This document shows positions 2,262 to 34,190 of a stretch of DNA of 64,000 nucleotides, in pieces (position 1 is the stretch's first letter; each line of letters starts with the position of its first letter). The notes beneath the pieces are model-generated. The model was given only the letters and a program-made list of their open reading frames with translations. It made no database searches and was not told the origin of the DNA. This DNA comes from Promethearchaeota archaeon (GTDB lineage Archaea; Asgardarchaeota; Lokiarchaeia; Sigyniarchaeales; SOKP01), in NCBI GenBank assembly GCA_011364925.1, contig RDOA01000008.1:36629-100628 (forward strand), written 5' to 3'. The position numbers and the translations under genes are program-made.

Positions 2262-3737
2262 ATGGTAATGGAAAATTCAGATATAATTCACACGTTTTTG
2301 CACCCAAAATCTGTTGCTGTTATTGGAGCCTCAAAGAAATTAGCAAAGGGAGGGTTTCGAATAACAACCAATCTCATTACTAACAATTTTAAAGGAAAAG
2401 TTTACCTTGTCAATCCTAATGCAAAAGGTAATCTATACAATCTAGAATTCAAAAAGTCTATTTTGGACATCGAGGATGATATAGATATTGCGATATTTTA
2501 CGTTCCAAATCGATTTATTCCTCATCTTCTGGAAGAATGTATAGAAAAGGGGGTTAAAGGTGCTATAATTGAGGCATCAGGGTTCGAAGAAGTCGGTAGT
2601 AAAGGATTGGAGTTAAAAAAAAAACTTATAGAAATTACAGATAATTTCACAAAAATACGAATCTTAGGTCCTAATTGCATGGGATTAAGCACTTTTATTG
2701 GCGATAGTGACAGCGAACAAAAAGAAGCCTTTTTTTCTGGATTTGGGCCTTTTTCAACTTTTAAAAGGGGGAACATAGGATTAATTAGTCAATCAGGAAT
2801 GTTGAATGGGGGTTACTTAATGCACATAATGACGCAGTATCCTCATTTAGGATTCAGATATTCGTGTTCAATCGGAAATAAGACTGACATTAGCGAATTA
2901 GAGTTTTTAGAATACATGTTATCTGATGACACGGTAAATGTCATTGCGATATACCTAGAATCCTTTAAAGATCCGAGGAAATTTATAGAACTGTGTAAAA
3001 AAGCTAAATCCATGCCAAACAAAACGATTATTTTACTTAGAGGCGGAGTAACTAGCCAGGGTCAAAAAGCTACGCGTAGTCATACCGGTTCAATGGCTGA
3101 AAACGCGCGATTAATCCAAGGAATTATTAAGCAATCGGGCGTGATTTATGTAAATAATTTTTACGAATTATTTCAGTTTGCTCGGTCGTTTTCGATCATG
3201 TATAAAACGGGACAAGCATTTCCTAAAAAGGGGAATGTTTCGTTTTTAGCGGGTTCTGGAGGTGCTGGGACATTAATCGCCGATCTTACTATGATACACG
3301 GTTTAAAGCTCCCAATTTTACACGATAAAACGTATAGTGTTCTCGTAGAAGTTTTCCCAGAGTGGATGCCTCCAAATAGGTTTGCGTTTGTAGACATTTG
3401 GCCGGCAATGGAAAAAGCCATGATGCGTAGGGAAAAACCAGAAGTTGTTTTAAGCAGAGTTTATAAAGCTTTAATAGAGGATCCTAATGTAGAGGGAATA
3501 TTTAACATGTTATTTTGTTCAAAACAATTCAATGCGCTAAATGATATCGACGAACTCATCAAGGTAGCAGAAAAATCTCCAAAACCCTTTTATTTCTGGT
3601 TAGTTGGCGAAGCAAAGGAGGTGCAAAGAATTTCTGATCAGTTAGGAAAACACAATATCCTTGATTTCCCCAGTTTAGAAGATATGGTTAAAAACTTTAA
3701 GACCTTGGTTCAAAACTCGAATAACTTTATAAATTAA
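2262..3737 (+). CDS. CoA-binding protein, ADP-forming acetyl-CoA synthetase (ACD) alpha-subunit-like
   Basis: N-terminal CoA-binding signature LHPKSVAVIGASKK. Succinyl-CoA-ligase-like phosphohistidine segment ATRSHTGSMAEN. No adjacent ATP-grasp beta subunit. Confidence 0.8.
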   Translation: MVMENSDIIHTFLHPKSVAVIGASKKLAKGGFRITTNLITNNFKGKVYLVNPNAKGNLYNLEFKKSILDIEDDIDIAIFYVPNRFIPHLLEECIEKGVKGAIIEASGFEEVGSKGLELKKKLIEITDNFTKIRILGPNCMGLSTFIGDSDSEQKEAFFSGFGPFSTFKRGNIGLISQSGMLNGGYLMHIMTQYPHLGFRYSCSIGNKTDISELEFLEYMLSDDTVNVIAIYLESFKDPRKFIELCKKAKSMPNKTIILLRGGVTSQGQKATRSHTGSMAENARLIQGIIKQSGVIYVNNFYELFQFARSFSIMYKTGQAFPKKGNVSFLAGSGGAGTLIADLTMIHGLKLPILHDKTYSVLVEVFPEWMPPNRFAFVDIWPAMEKAMMRREKPEVVLSRVYKALIEDPNVEGIFNMLFCSKQFNALNDIDELIKVAEKSPKPFYFWLVGEAKEVQRISDQLGKHNILDFPSLEDMVKNFKTLVQNSNNFIN

Positions 3738-3783
3738 CTCTCTAATCTTCCGATTACCCTAAATAAAAAAAAAAAAATAATCT

Positions 3784-4494
3784 CTATAAAATCTCCTTAT
3801 TTTTCTGTAACTTCCAAACTCCAAATCCTTGAACTAAAAAACAGAGTAAGAAGGAATATTGAGAGATTTTTTGCATAGATGCTTGTAATATTAATCCGTC
3901 CAGAGTTATGGATTTTGGTATACTGATCAATACTATTGTATAGATCGCTGCGACAGCTAACAGCGCGACATAAACAAAACCATACAAGTTAGGATAGTCA
4001 TTATTGTAGAAAACTGCGATTGTAAAAAACAATATACCCACTATGCCAGTAATATTGAACAAATTCGCAAACATTAAATGCGTTCTATTAAAAAGATCCC
4101 AGGGAGTAAAAATAGTTACGATCAAGAATACAACTGAAGTTAGGCTAATTAAAGATCCAATTCTGGCTATTAAATACTGTTTTTTATCTTTTTTAAAATA
4201 CGATGAGAATATTAGAGCGAAGGGTATAAAGGAAAAGCTTAGAATTAATGCTGTAATTGTAAAAATTGTAAATGATACGAAATTTGGAGCCCCAGATAGT
4301 GCAAATACGCGCCCTAAATCGCTAAAGAAGTTTCCCCAGAAATAATATCCTGGACTTAAAGGATTTACCAAAGTGCCTCCCGCGTAAAAAAACATCGCTA
4401 TCGCCGTAAAAACTATATATTGTGTGGGTCCAAAAATTATAGATACCGACGCAAATAGTTTCCAATTTTTAATCATCTTCAATAAAACCACCAT
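3784..4494 (-). CDS. polytopic membrane protein, unknown function
   Basis: 236 aa with about 6 hydrophobic helices. Confidence 0.6.
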   Translation of the reverse strand: MVVLLKMIKNWKLFASVSIIFGPTQYIVFTAIAMFFYAGGTLVNPLSPGYYFWGNFFSDLGRVFALSGAPNFVSFTIFTITALILSFSFIPFALIFSSYFKKDKKQYLIARIGSLISLTSVVFLIVTIFTPWDLFNRTHLMFANLFNITGIVGILFFTIAVFYNNDYPNLYGFVYVALLAVAAIYTIVLISIPKSITLDGLILQASMQKISQYSFLLCFLVQGFGVWKLQKNKEIL

Positions 4495-5451: not shown

Positions 5452-5661
5452 TATTAAAAACCTTTTAACAACGATTATGTGTCTATTTTTTTTTCTAAAA
5501 TATTTTAACTATTCTAAACATAATTTTGTAAATAGCTTTTAAAAACCCGAATTTTTTTCCATTGGCTTAATTTTAAGAAGATGAATTTCTATTATTTAAG
5601 AAAGAGTTTAGCTAAACATAAGATTATTTAGGGAAATATCTGCGTAGAATAAGGGTTGGGT

Positions 5662-7035
5662 ATGGTTTATTTTAAAATTAATGGATTAGGATATAACTGC
5701 GGTTATATCGAAAGTAAATGCCCAAAAGAAAAGACTTCTTGTATTGAATGCATTAAAGATCGTTTAAGAGATCTTGGATTTGAATTTGATTCGACAATAG
5801 AAATCTTTAAACTCGATTCTATCGAAAAACAGTTAGAGTTAGAAAGAGATACCATTTGGCAAAAATTTTTGGATGTATTAAACATTAAGCACATTCTAAT
5901 AATGGACAAGGAATCAGGATTAACCGTGATAAACTACACAGTATCAGGAGTAGATGTTGATGTAGAGCTTCTGAGTGGGTTTATACAAGCTAATATAACA
6001 TTTTCTGAATCAGGAGAAGCGTCTAAGCAAAACCTCGTATCCTCTTACGAAAATCTTTTTTACGAATTCCAATATAAAAGTTTTAATATTCTGCTTAAAG
6101 ATGGGAATCATGTTCGAATTTGCTTAATACTCGACCATAAGGCGTCTAATAAACTTCGAAATCACACATTTCGATTTGTAGAGGAATTTGAAGAGAAATT
6201 TGAAGAGGAACTTATTACTTTACGAAACACTGGTTCTATTAATTTCAATAACATGATAGATGATATTGTGGATAGTTTTAACATAAATCTTACATTTCCA
6301 ATGACTTTAGTACACTCAATTCCGCCATATGAGTTAGAAAAAGTAAAAAGAAGCATACTGCAGAAAGCGATATTTAATTTAGCAAAAGAAATGCTTGCGG
6401 TAAAACCGTTCTTCTTTATATACAACATGCTACAGCGTATTAAGAAAATTGTAAATATCGATGATGAAGTTATCCTCTTTGAGATTCACCAACTCTTAGA
6501 AAGACAAATCATTACTCCAACACCTATAGAAGCGATTGCAGATACCATAGAATCTGGTCAGTTGGCTGATAAGAAGAAAGAAACTAAAACTAGTTCAATA
6601 TCATCTATTATTATAAGTAAAACGGATACTGATGAACTAAAAAGCAAATTAGACACAATGGACAAATTTTCAGCACAGAAGTTAATTAAGGAATTGATGC
6701 GAAAAGCTAAAGCAGCAGAAAAAGAATCAACTTATCAAGTAACTCTTAACGAATACAATAAAGCTTTATTTATAGCTAAGGACTTTAAACTCAAAGATGA
6801 GATTAGCAAGATTAACCAAAAAATCTTTAATTTAGAGCACAAATCTAAAAATATAGAATTAGACTTTAATATTGAAAAAGCAGAAAATGCTGAAAAATAT
6901 GGCGATTTTATCAACAGCATCAATTATTATCAAAAAGCTTTAGAAATCCTTGACGAATTCATAGTTTATAATATTATCGACCCTAGAATAAAGAAGTTTA
7001 AGAAAAAAATCGCACAACTTCGAGAAGAGATCTGA
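5662..7035 (+). CDS. longin/roadblock-like domain protein with N-terminal 4-Cys cluster and C-terminal helical (TPR/MIT-like) region
   Basis: The ORF track starts at TTG 5656; the first ATG is at 5662 (MVYFKING). Cys cluster C-x6-C-x6-C-x2-C. The segment ILIMDKESGLTVINYTVSG..LLSGFIQANITFSE..HVRICLILD resembles longin/roadblock folds. K/E-rich helical C-terminus. Confidence 0.6.
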   Translation: MVYFKINGLGYNCGYIESKCPKEKTSCIECIKDRLRDLGFEFDSTIEIFKLDSIEKQLELERDTIWQKFLDVLNIKHILIMDKESGLTVINYTVSGVDVDVELLSGFIQANITFSESGEASKQNLVSSYENLFYEFQYKSFNILLKDGNHVRICLILDHKASNKLRNHTFRFVEEFEEKFEEELITLRNTGSINFNNMIDDIVDSFNINLTFPMTLVHSIPPYELEKVKRSILQKAIFNLAKEMLAVKPFFFIYNMLQRIKKIVNIDDEVILFEIHQLLERQIITPTPIEAIADTIESGQLADKKKETKTSSISSIIISKTDTDELKSKLDTMDKFSAQKLIKELMRKAKAAEKESTYQVTLNEYNKALFIAKDFKLKDEISKINQKIFNLEHKSKNIELDFNIEKAENAEKYGDFINSINYYQKALEILDEFIVYNIIDPRIKKFKKKIAQLREEI

Positions 7036-7167
7036 TCTTCATTTATAGATACTGCTGTAGAATCAAACATGCTTTTATTAACCTAAAACCTTTTTTACGT
7101 GTTAATATTACACAATTTAACTGAAACAGAACTGTTTGAATTTTAATATAAATAATTTGCACTCATT

Positions 7168-7674
7168 ATGGAAACAGTAAAAATCATCGTTTCTGGAGAT
7201 GGCGGAGTAGGAAAAACGTCATTTTTGAATCGTTTAGTCAATAATAGTTTTGACGATTTTAGTGAATTAACAAAAGGCGTCGATTTTTACTCAAAAAGGA
7301 TATTTGTTAATGGAACCGAATTTAATTTCATAATGTGGGATTTTGCTGGCCAAGATCGATTTAAAACATTGTTAAACGACTTTGTTGAAGGTTCACTTGC
7401 TGCTTTTATTCTTTTTGACTTATCAAGAATTAATACCATAGAAAATGTATATGAGTGGATAATTAATTTAGAATCATTCGGACAAATTCCTATAATATTA
7501 ATAGGAACAAAGGTGGACTTGATAACCCCATATCAATCCCAAACAATTGATACTTACATCTCAGAAATTAAGAAAGAGTATGAGAATGTAATCTCTTATA
7601 TAAAAATATCATCGAAGACTGGGGAAAATATAAAAAATGCTTTTGAAATTTTAATAGGAAATTTGTTTCGATAA
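7168..7674 (+). CDS. small GTPase, Rab/Ras-like (minimal 168 aa)
   Basis: G1 GDGGVGKTS, G3 WDFAGQDRF, G4 GTKVDL, G5 SSKTG. No C-terminal Cys or prenylation motif. Confidence 0.85.
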   Translation: METVKIIVSGDGGVGKTSFLNRLVNNSFDDFSELTKGVDFYSKRIFVNGTEFNFIMWDFAGQDRFKTLLNDFVEGSLAAFILFDLSRINTIENVYEWIINLESFGQIPIILIGTKVDLITPYQSQTIDTYISEIKKEYENVISYIKISSKTGENIKNAFEILIGNLFR

Positions 7675-7699
7675 ATAATTCTCCATATAGATGGAATAG

Positions 7700-8725
7700 T
7701 TACACTTTTTCAACCCATCCAAATTCATCCTTTATGTCTAAACGTTGAATTCCCACGAGAAGCTCATATAATTTACGCGTAAATTCCCCCGGTTCCCCTT
7801 CACTAAAAATCCTTTTTTTATCGTCTACCGCAACAGATTTAATCGGAGTGATAACAGCCGCTGTACCTGAGCAGAAAGTTTCGGTACAAGAATCTTCAAA
7901 TAATTCTTTATATGAAATGTCCCTTTCTTCAGTGTTCATACCAATTTTCTTTGAAGCTAGCTCTAGTATTGATTTTCGAGTAATACCAGGTAAAATCGTT
8001 CCTGCAGCTTTGGGTGTAGTAAGAACCCCATTAATCACAGCAAAAAAATTGGCAGTTCCTACCTCGTCGATGAACTCCATATGGACGGCGTCTAGGAATA
8101 TTACTTGGGCAAACCCCTTTTCCTTCGTTTCTTTTGCGGGTAACATTGACCCCGCGTAATTACAACACGTTTTAGATGCTCCTGTTCCCCCAGGAGCGGC
8201 TCTGGTGTATTTTTTAGTGATTTCTAAATCTATACCCTTAAAGCCTTCTGGAAAATAAGGTCCTACAGGAACTGTAAAAATTATTAATTTATATTCTTTA
8301 GCGGGTTTAACTCCAACTATAGGTCCCGTTCCTATCATCAGAGGGCGAATATAGAGTGCTCCACCACTATCGTAAGGAGGTATAAAATCCGTGTTTGCTT
8401 TTACTACTTCTTTTACAGCAGAAACAAAATCGTCCGTATTATAATTCGGCATTAATAATCGGTCAGCACTGTCGTTAAACCTTTTTGCGTTTTCAATAGG
8501 TCTAAAAAGCACTATCTCACCATTTTTCGTCTTTAAAGCCTTCATCCCTTCAAAAATTCCCTGTCCATAGTTCAAAATGCAAGCAGCGGGAGATATTTCA
8601 AAATTTCCGAAAGGAACTAATCTTCCTTTATCCCATTTACCATCCTTATAATCTGAAACAAACATTTCTTTGGTTTTAATAAAGTCGAACCCTAAAGAAT
8701 AATAGTCAATATCATTAGCATCCAT
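7700..8725 (-). CDS. ilvE: branched-chain amino acid aminotransferase (class IV PLP enzyme)
   Basis: FEGMKA, YIRP and GTGASKTCCNYAGS motifs typical of BCAT. The ORF track begins at TTG 8734; the first ATG is at 8725 (MDANDIDYY). Confidence 0.85.
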   Translation of the reverse strand: MDANDIDYYSLGFDFIKTKEMFVSDYKDGKWDKGRLVPFGNFEISPAACILNYGQGIFEGMKALKTKNGEIVLFRPIENAKRFNDSADRLLMPNYNTDDFVSAVKEVVKANTDFIPPYDSGGALYIRPLMIGTGPIVGVKPAKEYKLIIFTVPVGPYFPEGFKGIDLEITKKYTRAAPGGTGASKTCCNYAGSMLPAKETKEKGFAQVIFLDAVHMEFIDEVGTANFFAVINGVLTTPKAAGTILPGITRKSILELASKKIGMNTEERDISYKELFEDSCTETFCSGTAAVITPIKSVAVDDKKRIFSEGEPGEFTRKLYELLVGIQRLDIKDEFGWVEKV

Positions 8726-8924
8726 AAATATCAAATCAATGTTTTATTTATCAGATTTATTTAATGAAGAGTTCACTAAAAAACCTTATTGATAATACTA
8801 AGGGTATTTTCAAACGAATATTAATTATAGGTTATCAGAAAAATCAATAAAGATAAATAAAAAAAATTTGATTTATAAATTAATTTTAAATTTGCCTTTT
8901 AAACGAAATTAACGCCTAAGAATT

Positions 8925-9869
8925 ATGGCTGTAATACCCCGCAAATCTAACGAGTTTAAACTGGTTATTGCAGGATTGGATAACGCTGGTAAAACGAGCG
9001 CTCTAATAGCGTTAAGACAAAAATATAATTTTTACGAGCGAGTCAAGAATTTAAAACCAACGATAAAAATTGATTATAGCTCCTTTAAATTTCTTAATAA
9101 ATACCGAATTAATCTCTGGGATATGGGAGGACAAAAAAAATTCAGAAAGATCTATATTAATAATCCGATTTATTTTGAAGACACAGATTACATTTATTAT
9201 CTTATAGACATTCAAGATGAAGTCAAATTTGAGGAAGCTATTGAATATCTCCACGAATTACTTAAAATCTTTAGGAATCTGGCTTATCCTAACGAAGTAA
9301 TAGTCTGTTTTAACAAGTACGATCCCCAATTCAGAAATAACGAGGAATTTAGAGATCGAACAGATATGATTAAAAATTTGGTCAAATCACAAAACAAAGA
9401 TATTAAATTTGAATTTTATAACACATCATATTACGACATTTCATCGATTTCGAAAGCATTGTCTCGCTCGTTAAATAGTTTGTTAAATTTAAATGAAATA
9501 GATAACGGTTTAAATAATTTAGTAAGTAACTTTAATTGTAGATATGCAATATTATACACAGATTCAGGAATCATTATTTCTGATCATTATTTAGACACTA
9601 TGGACATAAGAGAGTTTGAAGATAAAATAAGCCATAAAATTAGCGGGGATCTTGAATTCTTTCAGATGTTAAAGGATGAAAATGTTAATATCGACGATAG
9701 AATCACATTTTCCCATGATAAAACTGACTATGTTAAAAAATTTTCAATCCTATCAGAGAATATGGACAATACTCTGTATATTGGGGTAAGTACGACAGTT
9801 AATAGTATTAATGAGGTTAAAATCGAATTAGAAAAACTAAGTAATGTCTTACAAACAAGTTTTGTATAA
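8925..9869 (+). CDS. Arf-motif GTPase with C-terminal roadblock-like domain (Rag/Gtr-like architecture)
   Basis: G1 GLDNAGKTS, G3 WDMGGQKKF, G4 NKYD in the first ~180 aa. The C-terminal ~130 aa (CRYAILYTDSGIIISDHY..ITFSHDKTDYVKKFSIL..TLYIGVSTT) has an alternating beta/alpha roadblock-like pattern. At 314 aa, its length and layout mirror eukaryotic RagA/Gtr1. Confidence 0.7.
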   Translation: MAVIPRKSNEFKLVIAGLDNAGKTSALIALRQKYNFYERVKNLKPTIKIDYSSFKFLNKYRINLWDMGGQKKFRKIYINNPIYFEDTDYIYYLIDIQDEVKFEEAIEYLHELLKIFRNLAYPNEVIVCFNKYDPQFRNNEEFRDRTDMIKNLVKSQNKDIKFEFYNTSYYDISSISKALSRSLNSLLNLNEIDNGLNNLVSNFNCRYAILYTDSGIIISDHYLDTMDIREFEDKISHKISGDLEFFQMLKDENVNIDDRITFSHDKTDYVKKFSILSENMDNTLYIGVSTTVNSINEVKIELEKLSNVLQTSFV

Positions 9870-9986
9870 ACATAATGGAAACCAGATGTACTATTATTTA
9901 ATTCGATTTTGACCCATTTGACCTTTTTTCTATTAAGTCTCACACTCAATCAAAAGCTTTTTCTTGAGTATAGGTTTTCTTCATTT

Positions 9987-10868
9987 ATGGCTCTTCAAAA
10001 AATGACTGCCAAAAAAATCATCGAGAAAAAGAGAAAAGGAGAAAAAATCGTAACCATTACTTCTTATGACTATTCGTTTGCTAAAATTGTCGACGATTGT
10101 GGGATTGACTTAATTCTCGTAGGTGACTCCCTTTCCATGGTTGTTCTTGGATACAAAAATACATTAGCAGTGACCATGGACGAAATGATTCACCACACTA
10201 AAGCAGTGACAAGAGGCGTTTCAAATGCGATGGTAGTTGGAGATATGCCCTTTTTGTCCTATAAAATTGGAGTCAAAAAAGCAGTCCAAAACGCGGGAAG
10301 ATTTATTCAAGAAGGAGGAGCAGAAGCGGTAAAAGTTGAGGGTGGAGCTAAAATCTGTCCGACTATAAAAGCAATGATAGATGCAGATATACAAGTAATG
10401 GGCCATATTGGTCTAACTCCTCAAGCAATATATGAATTTGGAGGTTTCTTAGTACAAGGAAAGACCATCGAAGGAGCGAAAACTTTAATTATTGATGCTA
10501 AGAAGTTGGAAAAAACGGGAGTGTTTTCAATAGTACTTGAGAGTATACCGTGGCAAATTGCAAAATTAATAACTCAATCGGTAGATATTCCTACCATTGG
10601 TATAGGGGCTGGTTCGTATTGTGATGGACAAATATTAGTTATTAACGATATGTTGGGGCTTTTTACAGACTTCAAACCAAAATTTCTAAAATATTTTGGA
10701 GATATTGGTAATTCCGTCAAAATGGCCGTTAACGACTACCAAAACGAGGTAAAAAGTGGTCTCTATCCTGATATAGAACACTCCTATGAATTCCCAAAAG
10801 AAGATTTGAATGAGATCGAAGAATGGTTTGAAAACACTGATCTCGAAAATGAAGTAGGCGAAAAGTAG
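9987..10868 (+). CDS. panB: 3-methyl-2-oxobutanoate hydroxymethyltransferase (ketopantoate hydroxymethyltransferase)
   Basis: [66 protein letters not shown] match PanB. The ORF-track start at 9909 adds a non-homologous leader, so ATG 9987 is preferred. Confidence 0.85.
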
Positions 10869-11092: not shown

Positions 11093-12835
11093 ATGGCCGA
11101 AGAATACGATTTTTTGTTTAAATCGATTGTGGTAGGTGATGGCGGAGTTGGTAAAACAGCACTTACGCTCCGTTTCTCAAAAGGTTTTTTCACTGAAGAT
11201 TACAAAATGACAATCGGTGTTGATTTCCACGTAAAGACAATTTCAATTGATACATCTGAAGGGCCTATCAAGTGTAAGCTCCAACTCTGGGATACTGGGG
11301 GTCAAGAACGATTTAGCTCGATAAGACCAATGTACTATAGAGGATCGTTAGGAACTGTACTCGTTTTTGATCTCACAAATTCAGAAAGTTTTGGACATTT
11401 ACCACAATGGATACAAGAAGTCAGAGCTAACATAAAAGCTGATATTCCGGTGCTTCTTGTCGGAAATAAAAGCGATCTAGTTGACCAGAGAGCCGTCTCG
11501 GCGGAGGATGTAAGTAAATTTACAAGAGACTTTAACCTATATTATATGGAAACTTCGGCTAAAACGGGTGATGGAGTTGGAGATTGTTTTTACATTCTTG
11601 CATGCTTAATGATAGGACAGGGTGTTCCTGAACAATTAATTGCAAACTCAATCGTTTTTGCTCCAGGACAATTTGCTACACCAGCCGTTCAAATTTCTTC
11701 GCAACCAATAGTTACTAAGGAACCTCAAAGCAATTATATCGCACCATCTGTTCCAGGACATATCCAAAACTTGAAAGAGGAGCCTGAAATAGAGTTTGAG
11801 GCACCACCAGTTCCTGAACCGAAGTTATCAAAAGTTCGAGGTCCAACGTCTCCTTTCATTTCCGATTCAGAGATTGAATTTGAGGCTCCACCTGTTCCTG
11901 AACCACCACTAAAAGCGAAACCGCAACCTACTCCCGAAATCTCTCTACCTGAACCAACTGAAATAGAGTTTAAAACTCCTGATGAAATTATGATCAAAGA
12001 AGCTATAAAATCCGAACTTGATACATTAACAAGCGGTGACAATGTCTATAAACCTAAGACTGCACCTTTTACACCCAATGCTCCAGAACCTACAGCACCT
12101 CCTAAAGAATTTCAGAGTTCTTATTCAGAAGAACCAATCGAGAGATCTCCTATCCACACACCATTTCGCGTTATTAAAAGAGAAGAGTCTCCTAAACCTC
12201 AACCAGCTTCAATGACGTTTGAACCTAGCCCTTCACCTCAACCAGAATCAACTGAATCTTTAGAATCAACCTCTGATTCGTTGATCGACTATATGCCTCA
12301 AACAATTTTAACGAAAAAAGAGAAGAAAAAGCAAGCAAAGGAAAAGAAAAAACAAGAAAAAGAGAAAGCAAAAATAGAAAAAGAGAAGAAAATGCTCGAA
12401 GAAAGGGAGAAACAAGAAGAATTGATCAAAGAAATGAAAAAATCTAAAAAATCTAAAAAGGAAAAACCCATCGTAACCCAAACATCAGAACCAACGCAAG
12501 CACCTACTATAAGTCGACCAGAAACTGGTATGAATTCCTTATTCCAAACCCTCACCCAAAAATCTGAAGTCTCCCCACCAGATCAGAGTGTCCCATTTAT
12601 ACCTTTTTCGGGAACAAGCAAAACTAAAGAAGAAGGGACATCTAAATTAAGAATCATCCCAAATGTAGCAGACATTGATGCAAACTCTAACGGTTTCACA
12701 GCTTTTACTTCGTCTCAATCCAATCCAGATGAAGAACCAAAAGCTAAAACTAAAGATCTCTTAATTTGCGAGCAGTGTGGTTCAATCTTATCTGCTGATT
12801 ATGCATATTGTAACAAATGTGGTAATAAGTTATAG
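11093..12835 (+). CDS. Rab-like small GTPase with ~400-aa disordered/repeat extension and C-terminal zinc ribbon
   Basis: G domain: GDGGVGKTAL, YKMTIGVDF, WDTGGQERF, GNKSDL, ETSAKTG. It is followed by P/E-rich repeats (EIEFEAPPVPEP twice, then EIEFKTPDE), a K/E block, and the terminal CEQCGSILSADYAYCNKCGNKL. Confidence 0.85.
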   Translation: MAEEYDFLFKSIVVGDGGVGKTALTLRFSKGFFTEDYKMTIGVDFHVKTISIDTSEGPIKCKLQLWDTGGQERFSSIRPMYYRGSLGTVLVFDLTNSESFGHLPQWIQEVRANIKADIPVLLVGNKSDLVDQRAVSAEDVSKFTRDFNLYYMETSAKTGDGVGDCFYILACLMIGQGVPEQLIANSIVFAPGQFATPAVQISSQPIVTKEPQSNYIAPSVPGHIQNLKEEPEIEFEAPPVPEPKLSKVRGPTSPFISDSEIEFEAPPVPEPPLKAKPQPTPEISLPEPTEIEFKTPDEIMIKEAIKSELDTLTSGDNVYKPKTAPFTPNAPEPTAPPKEFQSSYSEEPIERSPIHTPFRVIKREESPKPQPASMTFEPSPSPQPESTESLESTSDSLIDYMPQTILTKKEKKKQAKEKKKQEKEKAKIEKEKKMLEEREKQEELIKEMKKSKKSKKEKPIVTQTSEPTQAPTISRPETGMNSLFQTLTQKSEVSPPDQSVPFIPFSGTSKTKEEGTSKLRIIPNVADIDANSNGFTAFTSSQSNPDEEPKAKTKDLLICEQCGSILSADYAYCNKCGNKL

Positions 12836-12871: not shown

Positions 12872-13654
12872 CTAAAGATTTTTACCACAAATGGGACAAG
12901 TACTCCATATTTTCTTAATCTTTGAATTACAATAAGGACAAGTTTTTAAATCTGGGTCTATTTGAGTTTGAAGTTTTCCAAAAATGGTTACATTATCTTC
13001 AGCACTATAACTTTTTGGCTGATGCGGTGGCTGAATCTCTCTACTATTTGTGTAAATTTGAGAAGATGTATCTATGGGTTCTTGCAGTTTTTCTTGAATT
13101 CTAAGATTTCGTTCTTGGTCTATAGTATCAGGTAGCTCTAACATTTCGTTGTATTCGCTTGAAACAGCAGCTCCTTGAGGAATTTGTTGGTTAACCTCAG
13201 ATTCTTCGATAGGAATACCGACTTCGTAATGAAAATATTTGCCCTCGTTATTTTCAATCACTGTTTCGCCATGAGCCAAAAGAACTTCAATATAATAGAT
13301 AATTATAGAACCCATTGGGACATCATTTATTTCGGCAATAAAATAATCCAATTCTTGTTCCATTCGCAAGCGATACCATGACTTTCCATGATCAGCACTA
13401 AAAATTAGAAGGACTCTTTCTAATGTGGTACTGAAATCTTCCTCTGTGATTTTAACAACAATTTTAATCGTTTTTTTTAAAATTTCTGTTTGTCCAACAG
13501 ATTCCGCTGCCTTTGTAGAATCCCATGCAGCGCCACATTTAGGGCAGTTAGTAAACCAATTTGGGTATACAAATTGACAATTGGTGCAATTTTTCGTAAA
13601 ATATCTAGTAGTTTTTATTCCAAGTGTTTTTTTTTTATCTTTTCCCATTATCAA
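12872..13654 (-). CDS. double zinc-ribbon protein, unknown function
   Basis: N-terminal CTNCQFVYPNWFTNCPKCG and C-terminal CPYCNSKIKKIWSTCPICG flank a beta-rich ~90-aa core and an acidic linker. Confidence 0.6.
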   Translation of the reverse strand: MIMGKDKKKTLGIKTTRYFTKNCTNCQFVYPNWFTNCPKCGAAWDSTKAAESVGQTEILKKTIKIVVKITEEDFSTTLERVLLIFSADHGKSWYRLRMEQELDYFIAEINDVPMGSIIIYYIEVLLAHGETVIENNEGKYFHYEVGIPIEESEVNQQIPQGAAVSSEYNEMLELPDTIDQERNLRIQEKLQEPIDTSSQIYTNSREIQPPHQPKSYSAEDNVTIFGKLQTQIDPDLKTCPYCNSKIKKIWSTCPICGKNL

Positions 13655-33173: not shown

Positions 33174-34190
33174 TTAAACCTCTTGTGTTTCTATATATTT
33201 TTTTATAATTTGAAGAGCGAGCATTCTAAAAGCGTCATTTATGTTCTCTCCTGTCTTTGCGGATGTTTCAAGATAAGTTAATTTTAATTTCTGCGATAAG
33301 GCTTCTCCTTCTTCCGTTGAAACAACTCGTTCTTCTTTTAAATCTATCTTATTTCCTACTAAAATAAGGACAATGTTAGGAGAAGCCTTCATAATCTCAC
33401 TATACCAATTTATGTCTATGTTTTCAAAACTTTCTCGATTAGTTACATCGTAGACTAAAATTCCCGCTTCAGCATTTGCTAAGTATGACATTCTAACCCG
33501 TTTAAATTGAGCTTGCCCCGCTAAGTCCCATATCACAAACCTAACAGTGCTTTCAAGCTCTTTGAAAGAACATTCCTTTTTCATGATCGATGTTCCAATC
33601 GTAGATTTATAATCTTTTGCAAAAACATTTTCTACATATCGATGTACCATACTCGTTTTTCCCACCGCTCCATCTCCACCGAGAATCAATTTAAAAGCGT
33701 ATTCTTTAGATTTGACTTTAACTTGTTGAACTCTATCTACTTTTCGTTGGATTTGAGAACCTCCAGAATTTATTACTAATTTTGGGATGACGGGACTCAC
33801 AGTTCTTCCGTCAAAGATTCGTGATATTTTTTCAGCTGCTAAATAGGCATAAGGGAAAACCTCATCTACTCCAGATAAAGAATCTAAAACCGTAACAAGA
33901 ACAGCTTCGGGTCCTGACTCGCAGAATATGAACCTATAATCTTCGGTATCAAAAGTACCCGTTCCAAATGAGCCGGAACTAAATTCTTCGGTAATCCTAG
34001 ATAAAACTGGCTCAACCAAAGCACTTACCCCTCCAATAATCTCTTCATTTAATGAATTCTCTGAAGAGCCAATTAAAGAGTCCATAATTAAACCATCCCG
34101 GTTTACGACGAGGACTGCGATTAAATCCTCACCTAAACTCTGTTTATACCATTGGAGTAAGGCTTTTAACTTTTTTGTGTCAATCGACAT
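33174..34190 (-). CDS. roadblock/LC7 domain - Rab/Ras-like GTPase fusion protein
   Basis: N-terminus: LIAVLVVNRDGLIMDSL..GGVSALVEPVL..AVLVTVLD (roadblock-like). C-terminus: GDGAVGKTS, DYKSTIG, WDLAGQAQF, GNKIDL, ETSAKTG. ATG 34190 is preferred over TTG 34199. Confidence 0.85.
   Translation of the reverse strand: MSIDTKKLKALLQWYKQSLGEDLIAVLVVNRDGLIMDSLIGSSENSLNEEIIGGVSALVEPVLSRITEEFSSGSFGTGTFDTEDYRFIFCESGPEAVLVTVLDSLSGVDEVFPYAYLAAEKISRIFDGRTVSPVIPKLVINSGGSQIQRKVDRVQQVKVKSKEYAFKLILGGDGAVGKTSMVHRYVENVFAKDYKSTIGTSIMKKECSFKELESTVRFVIWDLAGQAQFKRVRMSYLANAEAGILVYDVTNRESFENIDINWYSEIMKASPNIVLILVGNKIDLKEERVVSTEEGEALSQKLKLTYLETSAKTGENINDAFRMLALQIIKKYIETQEV

Follow-up and report, generated by a model that had tools for sequence, protein, structure and literature searches.

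A RagGtr-family small GTPase with a predicted C-terminal roadblock domain, and its stable pairing with ilvE in one Lokiarchaeial lineage

We describe a small GTPase gene, hereafter RagL, found at 8925-9869 on the + strand of a 64-kb stretch of DNA (contig RDOA01000008.1, positions 36,629 to 100,628) from a Promethearchaeota archaeon of the Lokiarchaeia; this stretch of 64,000 nt is the window, and coordinates refer to it unless another locus is named. The open reading frame (ORF) starts with ATG and encodes, as read from the window translation, a 314-aa protein that is 100% identical to the deposited NHJ20241.1 (locus tag EAX91_04795) of a Candidatus Lokiarchaeota metagenome-assembled genome (MAG). 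Because at least 481 homologs of this protein form a tight orthologous group of about 314 aa, it is no chance ORF. We judge it probable that RagL is a GTPase switch of the Rag/Gtr (RagGtr) family with intact catalytic motifs, a roadblock platform, no membrane anchor of its own and probably its own promoter, and that its pairing with the divergent neighbor ilvE, a branched-chain aminotransferase gene, is a lineage-specific feature without demonstrated functional coupling. The gene and the parts of its product are as follows.

8925..9869, + strand: RagGtr-family small GTPase RagL, 314 aa (ORF, Pfam, AlphaFold2 (AF2) model, Foldseek, RagGtr-labelled sequences)
Codons 8952-9485, + strand: G domain, residues about 10-187 (AF2 model)
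8973..8999, + strand: G1/P-loop GLDNAGKTS, residues 17-25 (translation; Arf/Arl type by sequence)
9117..9134, + strand: G3/start of switch II, WDMGGQ, residues 65-70 (translation; Q70 at the catalytic-glutamine position)
9312..9323, + strand: G4, NKYD, residues 130-133 (translation)
9492-9866, + strand: predicted C-terminal roadblock domain, residues about 190-314 (AF2 model)

A preliminary description of this DNA, made from its letters alone, had reported this ORF with the motifs GLDNAGKTS, WDMGGQ, NKYD and TSYYDISSISKALSR, and all of them are found in the translation of 8925-9869(+), TSYYDISSISKALSR being residues 167-181. Across 40 homologs with 29-92% identity, G1, switch-I P45-T46, G3 and K131/D133 are invariant, including G17, L18, D19, A21, G22, K23, S25 and the whole of W65-Q70. 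In RagL and its close orthologs G4 reads NKYD, NKFD or NKHD and not HKxD; in the wider orthogroup and the paralogs its consensus is HKYD ('CFHKYDP' in the alignment consensus), and the 'vHKMD' of RagA aligns at this position of the RagL family profile. Replacement of NKxD by HKxD is a characteristic, though not strictly defining, Rag variant of G4. The switch-II segment after WDMGGQ is, in the alignments, 3 residues longer than that of Arl3 and 2 shorter than that of RagA. The N-terminus, MAVIPRKSNEF, has Ala at position 2, with neither Gly2 nor an Arf-type amphipathic helix; in the AF2 model beta-1 begins at residue 10 and residues 1-9 are coil, the predicted local distance difference test score (pLDDT) of residues 1-5 being lower than 50. 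The protein sequence has no C-terminal cysteine motif.

The family of RagL was examined by searches against Pfam and PDB. The comparison proposed in the preliminary description, Pfam Gtr1_RagA against Arf, puts Gtr1_RagA first with 89.1 bits (cutoff 22) and nearly the whole model covered (positions 1-225 of 232), and Arf (PF00025) second with 77.5 bits, above its cutoff, over positions 10-142 of 174 only. Gtr1_RagA outscores Arf also in 7/10 further relatives (P0047, P0116, P0139, P0125, P0121, P0177 and the protein of locus L076); Arf scores higher in the paralogs P0141 and P0180, clearly so, and in the L072 protein by 0.5 bits. When the single RagL sequence is searched against PDB, the chains 8yl2 (95.8 bits, E 2.9e-26) and 8zla/9m28 (83 bits) lead; these are named merely 'GTP-binding protein' in that search, and are the two Lokiarchaeota proteins LokiRagO and LokiRagM discussed below. 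A family profile built from 40 sequences, with identity down to 29%, reaches 159.7 bits for LokiRagO at full length (residues 5-311 against 37-340), 114.8 bits for LokiRagM, 72.8 bits for human RagA (residues 10-241) and 65.1 bits for Schizosaccharomyces pombe Gtr1, with Arl3 below both of the latter at 63.5 bits and over residues 8-115 only. Throughout the PDB searches, Arf/Arl alignments end at RagL residues 115-148, whereas Rag alignments reach 238-241; the profile alignment to RagA spans G1-G5 and then the first strands of the C-terminal domain.

This bears on the blocks which the preliminary description had aligned by eye with yeast Gtr1. At the profile level they hold against human RagA: LNLWDCGGQ corresponds to inlWDmGGq, HKMD to hkyD, and TSIWDETLYKAWS to tsiydisslskais. 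They do not hold for the C-terminal half as a single sequence, because residues 108-314 used as a query against PDB match LokiRagO (E 0.0011) and no eukaryotic Rag, the remaining matches (TEF-3, a GFP fusion) being noise with E > 0.2. The likeness of this half to eukaryotic Rags is therefore detectable by profile only, and the G5-region alignment stands against RagA at that level and not with the single sequence.

The C-terminal domain was examined in an AF2 model computed from the alignment of 40 sequences with 29-92% identity, which has a pLDDT of 86.8 and a predicted template-modelling score of 0.80. It replaced a first model from 26 orthologs of 64-92% identity, which had a pLDDT of 64 and a poor G domain. 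After the G domain the model places, with H for helix and E for strand, H190-203, E207-212, E217-222, H228-251, E258-262, E267-277, E280-290 and H292-313. This order, alpha-beta-beta-alpha-beta-beta-beta-alpha, is that of the roadblock/LC7 fold, and by this confident model the C-terminal residues of RagL, about 125 in number, are a roadblock/LC7 domain. The alternating beta/alpha domain of about 130 aa that had been described by eye, and whose failure to fold as a roadblock would have spoken against it, is consequently seen in the prediction. With the model as a Foldseek query against PDB, the first 40 matches, led by LokiRagO and LokiRagM, are without exception Rag/Gtr chains of two domains, and their alignments of 301-337 columns take in both; Arf-type chains appear from rank 41 on, with about 185 columns covering the G domain only. 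The RagA/Gtr1-like layout and almost equal length that had been claimed for RagL are backed by Pfam, the profile, the model, Foldseek and the RagGtr-labelled sequences described next.

Vargova et al. (bioRxiv 10.1101/2024.02.28.582541) keep three Asgard groups apart, namely RagGtr, within which eukaryotic Rag/Gtr are nested in their phylogeny; ArfL, which is Asgard-only and without direct kinship with Arf; and ArfR, the true Arf relatives. For comparison we searched, with phmmer, sequences labelled in an accessible part of their Table S3, and what we say of labelled sequences applies to that part. Against RagL, the six best RagGtr-labelled entries score 65-158 bits, led by OLS13927.1 (157.5 bits, 36% identity over residues 12-288) and followed by five with 65-112 bits, and two remote ones score 38 and 20 bits. 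ArfL-labelled sequences reach at most 24 bits and RasL-labelled ones at most 22.5 bits, and one divergent ArfR-labelled sequence and the MglA/MglA1-labelled Asgard sequences give no match. OLS13927.1 and the two L076 proteins OLS14041.1 and OLS14042.1, all labelled RagGtr, are full-length homologs in our alignment, and NVM01625.1, with the same label, is near-identical to the L072 protein. Since direct orthologs of RagL were not found in this part of the table (0 occurrences of the peptide KYNFYE), the classing goes via similarity to labelled paralogs. In a rough neighbor-joining tree, which was computed with numpy distances and does not include eukaryotic Rags (their placement is that of Vargova et al.), RagL falls with the RagGtr-labelled sequences, apart from ArfL. 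The preliminary description had named a G domain placed firmly within Arf/Arl, with no Rag affinity, as an outcome that would speak against it; what we found is Rag affinity by Pfam, by the profile and by labelled sequences.

We have weighed these results against the alternative that RagL is an Arf/Arl-type GTPase with an incidental C-terminal extension and works, as the Asgard ArfR do, as a switch that associates with membranes. Several observations favor it and at the same time tell against our own placement. G1, GLDNAGKT, is of the Arf/Arl type and not the Rag type GxSGSGKS, and the WDxGGQ of G3 is also Arf/Arl-like; G4 is NKYD and not the Rag-typical HKxD; in the single-sequence PDB search the best eukaryotic match is Arl3 (55 bits, residues 9-132), ahead of RagA (49.5 bits, residues 5-238); the Pfam Arf score is above cutoff, and in the two paralogs named above it clearly exceeds that of Gtr1_RagA; and several RagL orthologs are annotated 'ADP-ribosylation factor-like protein' by NCBI. 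Opposed to the Arf/Arl alternative are the lack of Gly2 and of the N-terminal amphipathic helix, the Arf alignments that stop at 115-148, the length of 314 aa, including a roadblock domain that is found in no Arf, in place of the single domain of about 180 aa of an Arf, the position of every Arf-type Foldseek match below 40 Rag/Gtr chains, the low or missing scores against ArfL- and ArfR-labelled sequences, and the published phylogeny, in which RagGtr is separate from both. The domain layout, the Foldseek order, the labelled-sequence scores and the missing Arf hallmarks largely refute an Arf-type identity, and we regard it as very improbable. The Arf-like G1, the NKYD and the higher single-sequence score of Arl3 indicate a G domain that is somewhat intermediate, and it is with this qualification that we class RagL as a member of the Asgard RagGtr family.

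As to how such a RagGtr protein would work, the G domain retains every nucleotide-binding and catalytic position (GLDNAGKTS, switch-I T46, DMGGQ with Q70, NKYD), and with all of them kept, RagL should bind and hydrolyze GTP. Its roadblock domain would serve as a dimerization and docking platform, probably in the same way as the roadblock domain does in Rag/Gtr. Because RagL has no Arf helix, Gly2 or C-terminal cysteine motif, its recruitment to membranes or partners must be indirect.

The nearest known relatives of RagL are two Lokiarchaeota Rag-like proteins, crystal structures of which (8YL2, 8ZLA and 9M28) were released in 2025-26; our literature search found no paper describing these entries, LokiRagO or LokiRagM. 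LokiRagO (PDB 8YL2, GTP-bound, released 2025-09-10), titled 'homo tetrameric RagA-like small GTPase from Asgard Lokiarchaeota', is the best match to RagL by sequence and by fold (Foldseek E 1e-18, TM score 0.62-0.69), and has in common with it the two-domain layout, GLDNxGKTS, WDxGGQ and the switch-II length class. It is a paralog and not an ortholog, with a structure-based identity to RagL of about 22%, HKFD in place of NKYD, and about 30 extra N-terminal residues, and its homotetramer, which is known from the PDB title, is not transferable to RagL. LokiRagM (PDB 8ZLA with GDP, 9M28 with GTP), titled 'monomeric Rag-like small GTPase from Asgard Lokiarchaeota', ranks second by sequence; its G-domain motifs agree with those of RagL and the alignment enters the start of the C-terminal domain. 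It differs in having 385 aa and in superposing poorly on the RagL model at full length (TM score 0.44, root-mean-square deviation about 16 Å), which points to a different domain arrangement or C-terminal region.

Eukaryotic Rags are obligate heterodimers of an A/B-type and a C/D-type subunit joined via their roadblock domains, and relay amino-acid sufficiency to TORC1 via Ragulator/EGO and GATOR-type partners; we know of no Ragulator/EGO, GATOR or TORC1 partners in the source organism. RagL has in common with RagA/RagC and yeast Gtr1/Gtr2 (PF04670; 6S6A, 6CES, 4ARZ, 3R7W) the architecture, the length of about 310 aa and the absence of a lipid anchor, and these chains match its model with Foldseek E of 1e-16 to 1e-9 and TM scores of 0.5-0.64 over 301-337 columns. 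Identity is just 14-22%, however; the Arf-like GLDNAGKT stands against GKSGSGKS in Rag, besides the NKYD and the shorter switch II mentioned above, and the RagL gene has no adjoining A-type or C-type partner gene, unlike the paired eukaryotic Rags. In the bacterial MglA/MglB system, too, a G domain of the Ras superfamily is found together with a roadblock platform, a resemblance seen only in the C-terminal topology of RagL; there the roadblock GTPase-activating protein is separate, whereas RagL has both domains in a single chain and is like Rag in this.

RagL is no new protein type, but one of many already-described Lokiarchaeota Rag/Gtr GTPases. Roadblock-fused Rag-like GTPases in Lokiarchaeum had been reported by 2016, and a regulatory role was proposed for them, according to PMC4917890 (citing Klinger et al. 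for the report). Tran et al. 2024 (PMC10933270) presented AF2 models of the GTPase-roadblock architecture and stated its role as unknown; their 'Rag-like GTPase-RB' has the GTPase-roadblock order and a switch-II insert, both of which RagL has. Dey et al. count the question whether archaea sense nutrients by means of Rag homologs among the open ones. The RagL gene differs from the MK-D1 Rag pair of Tran et al., and from the tandem genes of L062 and L076, in having no tandem paralog, and no second RagGtr gene was found in the 64-kb window or next to RagL orthologs. Such paralogous tandem pairs on one strand are found at L062 (5004-5933 and 6402-7325) and L076 (6737-7918 and 8021-8935), and also in L073 and L074; they resemble an A-type/C-type heterodimer arrangement and the MK-D1 pair modelled by Tran et al.

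We now turn to the two sides of the RagL gene, where the following features are found.

7700..8734, - strand: ilvE, branched-chain aminotransferase (class IV), divergent neighbor of RagL (NCBIfam, Pfam Aminotran_4)
About 8745-8795, no strand: conserved AT-rich block next to ilvE, including TTATTTAATGA and CTAAAAAAYCTTATTGATAA (MAFFT)
About 8850-8895, no strand: conserved AT-rich block next to RagL, including AAATAAATAAAAAAAA and GATTTATAAATTAATTTTA (MAFFT)
9987..10868, + strand: panB, 3-methyl-2-oxobutanoate hydroxymethyltransferase (TIGR00222 326 bits, Pfam Pantoate_transf 368.6 bits)

The identification of the divergent neighbor as ilvE, made earlier from the letters, is borne out by NCBIfam NF009897 (421 bits, cutoff 307) and TIGR01123 ilvE_II (349 bits, cutoff 250), both far above their cutoffs. 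Its true start is probably the ATG at 8725, which gives 341 aa as on contig L083, and not the TTG at 8734; for panB, likewise, the ATG at 9987 is the likely start and not the mechanically called TTG at 9909, which leaves a gap of 117 bp to RagL. Both revisions are made because of the gene calls on L083 and the onset of conservation. The divergent intergenic region, 8735-8924, has the 190 bp described earlier, or 199 bp if ilvE starts at 8725.

When the intergenic regions of 34 orthologous ilvE-RagL pairs are aligned with MAFFT, the two AT-rich blocks are separated by a variable, indel-rich middle with no shared central element. Each block is at a distance compatible with archaeal TATA elements and B recognition elements (BRE), and we infer from the sequence that they are TATA/BRE-like promoter elements, forming back-to-back promoters rather than a shared operator; RagL is thus probably transcribed on its own, from its own conserved promoter-like block. 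A scan for sigma-70 promoters and intrinsic terminators gave 19 sites against 16.5 expected, under a model that is not applicable to archaea. The ilvE-side block at 8775-8795, CTAAAAAAYCTTATTGATAA, holds a conserved imperfect palindrome, TTATTGATAA, the core of which, TAAAAAAT, is present in 28/34 regions; this palindrome could be a regulator-binding site.

The preliminary description had found the position of a Rag-type gene beside ilvE striking, while calling a functional link pure speculation, and had proposed a survey of the neighbors in other Asgard genomes. We made such a scan with one genome per species and kept 80 loci, to which the L numbers refer; cultured strains (MK-D1, L. ossiferum) contributed no ortholog to this set. 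In nearly all full-length orthologs with 49-83% identity, ilvE is directly upstream and divergent, and the genomes with this context are all of one Lokiarchaeial lineage. For the junctions between neighboring genes, the informative genomes gave these counts.

ilvE-RagL: intact in 36/37
Rab580-ZnR260: intact in 31/31
w3784-TM272: intact in 14/14
w13766-w15066: intact in 25/27
RagL-panB: intact in 28/33
panB-Rab580: intact in 28/32
Ras168-ilvE: intact in 15/34
unk459-Ras168: intact in 7/24

The adjacency of ilvE and RagL is therefore not unique to this genome, which had been named as an outcome that would have told against its relevance; the intact pairs cover RagL identities of 49-100%. The single break among the 37 genomes is a DDE transposase insertion in L006, with RagL intact: in this locus, from Promethearchaeota Loki_b31, a 571-aa DDE transposase (PF01609, 29.5 bits) is in the ilvE position at 2324-4039(-). 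Gene order around the pair is kept as one collinear block, which takes up the whole retrievable flank and comprises about 13 genes (w2262 to w15422). The pair itself is retained better than 7/11 of the other junctions, and is equalled by Rab580-ZnR260, w3784-TM272 and w13766-w15066. Because the genomes are related and of one lineage, these counts are not independent events. Conservation of the adjacency had been considered as proof of coupling by itself, and we dropped it as such, since three unrelated junctions in the collinear block are equally stable. The pairing is a lineage-specific, very stable feature of gene order and part of a longer collinear block. The same block, about 9 kb of it, is also present in seven MAGs (L022, L025, L027, L029, L043, L056 and L080) titled Thorarchaeota, Hodarchaeota or Hermodarchaeota; their labels look doubtful, because they are closely collinear with Promethearchaeota (Loki) MAGs. 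On the other side of RagL, panB is absent between RagL and the Rab-like gene in 4-5 genomes (L016/L087, also L021, L028 and L030); the slot holds an OMPdecase/RraA-like gene in L016/L087, which in L087 is part of a 448-aa fusion on the opposite strand, 7161-8507(-).

The orthogroup of RagL, which is recovered in 79/100 bootstraps of the rough neighbor-joining tree and, in the loci retained from the scan, is single-copy in each genome, is wider than the ilvE context. None of its members at 42-55% identity is next to ilvE; they have genes for enoyl-CoA hydratase (ECH), 3-hydroxyacyl-CoA dehydrogenase (HADH) and thiolase, or unrelated genes, as neighbors. The ECH/HADH context was found at these loci.

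L038 5921-10139
L041 2716-8508
L042 1843-9146
L081 976-5843
L086 637-4378

At these loci ECH is upstream and usually divergent, and one or two convergent HADH genes are downstream, with a thiolase gene nearby in L041 and L086. Unrelated or unannotated neighbors are seen in L039/L085, L084, L035/L040 and L036. In the tree the ECH/HADH context is not monophyletic (0/100 bootstraps), and the ilvE clade reaches just 27/100 because L033, a locus with the ilvE context, is placed outside its main part; the position of L033 also suggests that the ilvE pairing may be old within the orthogroup. Metabolic neighbors thus recur across the orthogroup but differ from branch to branch, and some branches have none. 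The adjacency to ilvE is kept within one lineage and does not extend to the other branches of the orthogroup, so that the genomic context is suggestive in that lineage and not across the family.

These data allow us to weigh the reading in which RagL is functionally coupled to branched-chain amino-acid and 2-oxoacid metabolism, as a prokaryotic Rag-type nutrient switch that either is co-regulated with IlvE/PanB by way of a bidirectional promoter region, or regulates or senses the flux through these enzymes; in the related lineage it would act likewise with acyl-CoA catabolic enzymes. The conservation of a divergent gene pair is known as a sign of co-regulation, and IlvE and PanB both act on 2-oxoisovalerate. 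We also considered that ilvE and panB may form a metabolic cluster into which the GTPase gene was inserted. A part of our results runs with this reading and thereby counter to the more cautious one that we prefer. The ilvE-RagL junction is far more stable than Ras168-ilvE and somewhat more so than RagL-panB, so that the pair survives local rearrangement (the junction left of ilvE is broken in 19/34 genomes), and its one break is the transposase insertion. The two enzymes that flank RagL, in 28/33 genomes, have a common metabolite, a fact which the preliminary description did not mention. A second branch of the orthogroup is among acyl-CoA-metabolism genes, with the ortholog between ECH and HADH on five contigs, and the pairing with ilvE may be old, as L033 suggests. 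Eukaryotic Rags, moreover, signal amino-acid sufficiency, and a regulatory role was proposed for Loki Rags in PMC4917890.

Other results speak against coupling. The pair is embedded in the block of about 13 genes, in which unrelated junctions are kept equally well, and the genomes with the ilvE context are a single lineage; panB is missing from its slot in 4-5 genomes and replaced there in L016/L087 by the OMPdecase/RraA-like gene; orthogroup members at 45-54% identity are found among unrelated genes; the ECH/HADH context has no bootstrap support as a clade; and the intergenic blocks are separate, with a variable center. Strain CR_4 has at least 21 RagGtr entries in the accessible part of Table S3 of Vargova et al., and where a Lokiarchaeal genome encodes, on that basis, some 20 such proteins or more, a position of one of them beside an amino-acid gene is expected by chance. 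Neither Vargova et al. nor Tran et al. report a genomic context with ilvE or panB, and our literature search found no report of Asgard Rag genes with such or other branched-chain neighbors. Asgard archaea are not known to have a TOR pathway. In view of the collinear block, the separate promoter-like blocks, the varied contexts and the many paralogs, the amino-acid-sensing link to ilvE that had been entertained is not established, and we hold the coupling to be unlikely.

We nevertheless regard the orthogroup as worth attention. In eukaryotes, TORC1 signaling receives its amino-acid input through Rag GTPases, and cultured Lokiarchaeia (MK-D1) live by amino-acid degradation. Asgard relatives of Rag are cited as evidence for a pre-eukaryotic origin of parts of the TORC1 machinery. 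A broader proposal, which we consider quite unlikely, is that this single-copy RagGtr orthogroup works in prokaryotes as a nutrient switch linked with the catabolism of amino acids and acyl-CoA, being co-regulated in one lineage with IlvE/PanB, at the branch point of 2-oxoisovalerate, and placed in another among ECH/HADH/thiolase genes; if true, the link of Rag GTPases to amino-acid status would predate both eukaryotes and TOR. What the analysis adds is that, out of the roughly 20 or more RagGtr paralogs estimated per genome from the accessible part of Table S3, a single-copy orthogroup stands out by a very stable pairing with ilvE. If the coupling is real, this is important; if not, we are dealing with one ordinary protein of a known family, encoded within a syntenic block that is conserved. 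Given the stable pairing, the acyl-CoA context in the sister branch and the physiology of MK-D1, experiments on amino-acid response could reasonably begin with this orthogroup.

Other genes of the window deserve a short account. Besides RagL it has three RasL-type small GTPases, which are encoded at 7168-7674, 11093-12835 and about 33183-33716(-). The protein of 11093-12835(+) is a RasL/Rab-like GTPase with a low-complexity linker of about 400 aa, rich in Pro, Glu and Lys, and a C-terminal zinc ribbon; convergent with it, at 12872-13654(-), is a gene for a 260-aa protein with zinc ribbons at both ends. These two genes adjoin in 31/31 informative genomes, a pair as stable as that of ilvE and RagL. 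A 459-aa protein is encoded at 5656-7035(+), with an N-terminal Cys-rich stretch, a middle part that resembles a roadblock or longin domain by eye, and a weak C-terminal MIT-like match (E 0.016) as its sole Pfam match. Its gene is just upstream of that for the 168-aa RasL GTPase at 7168-7674(+), an adjacency that is intact in 7/24 genomes, and the two products may be a GTPase and its regulator.

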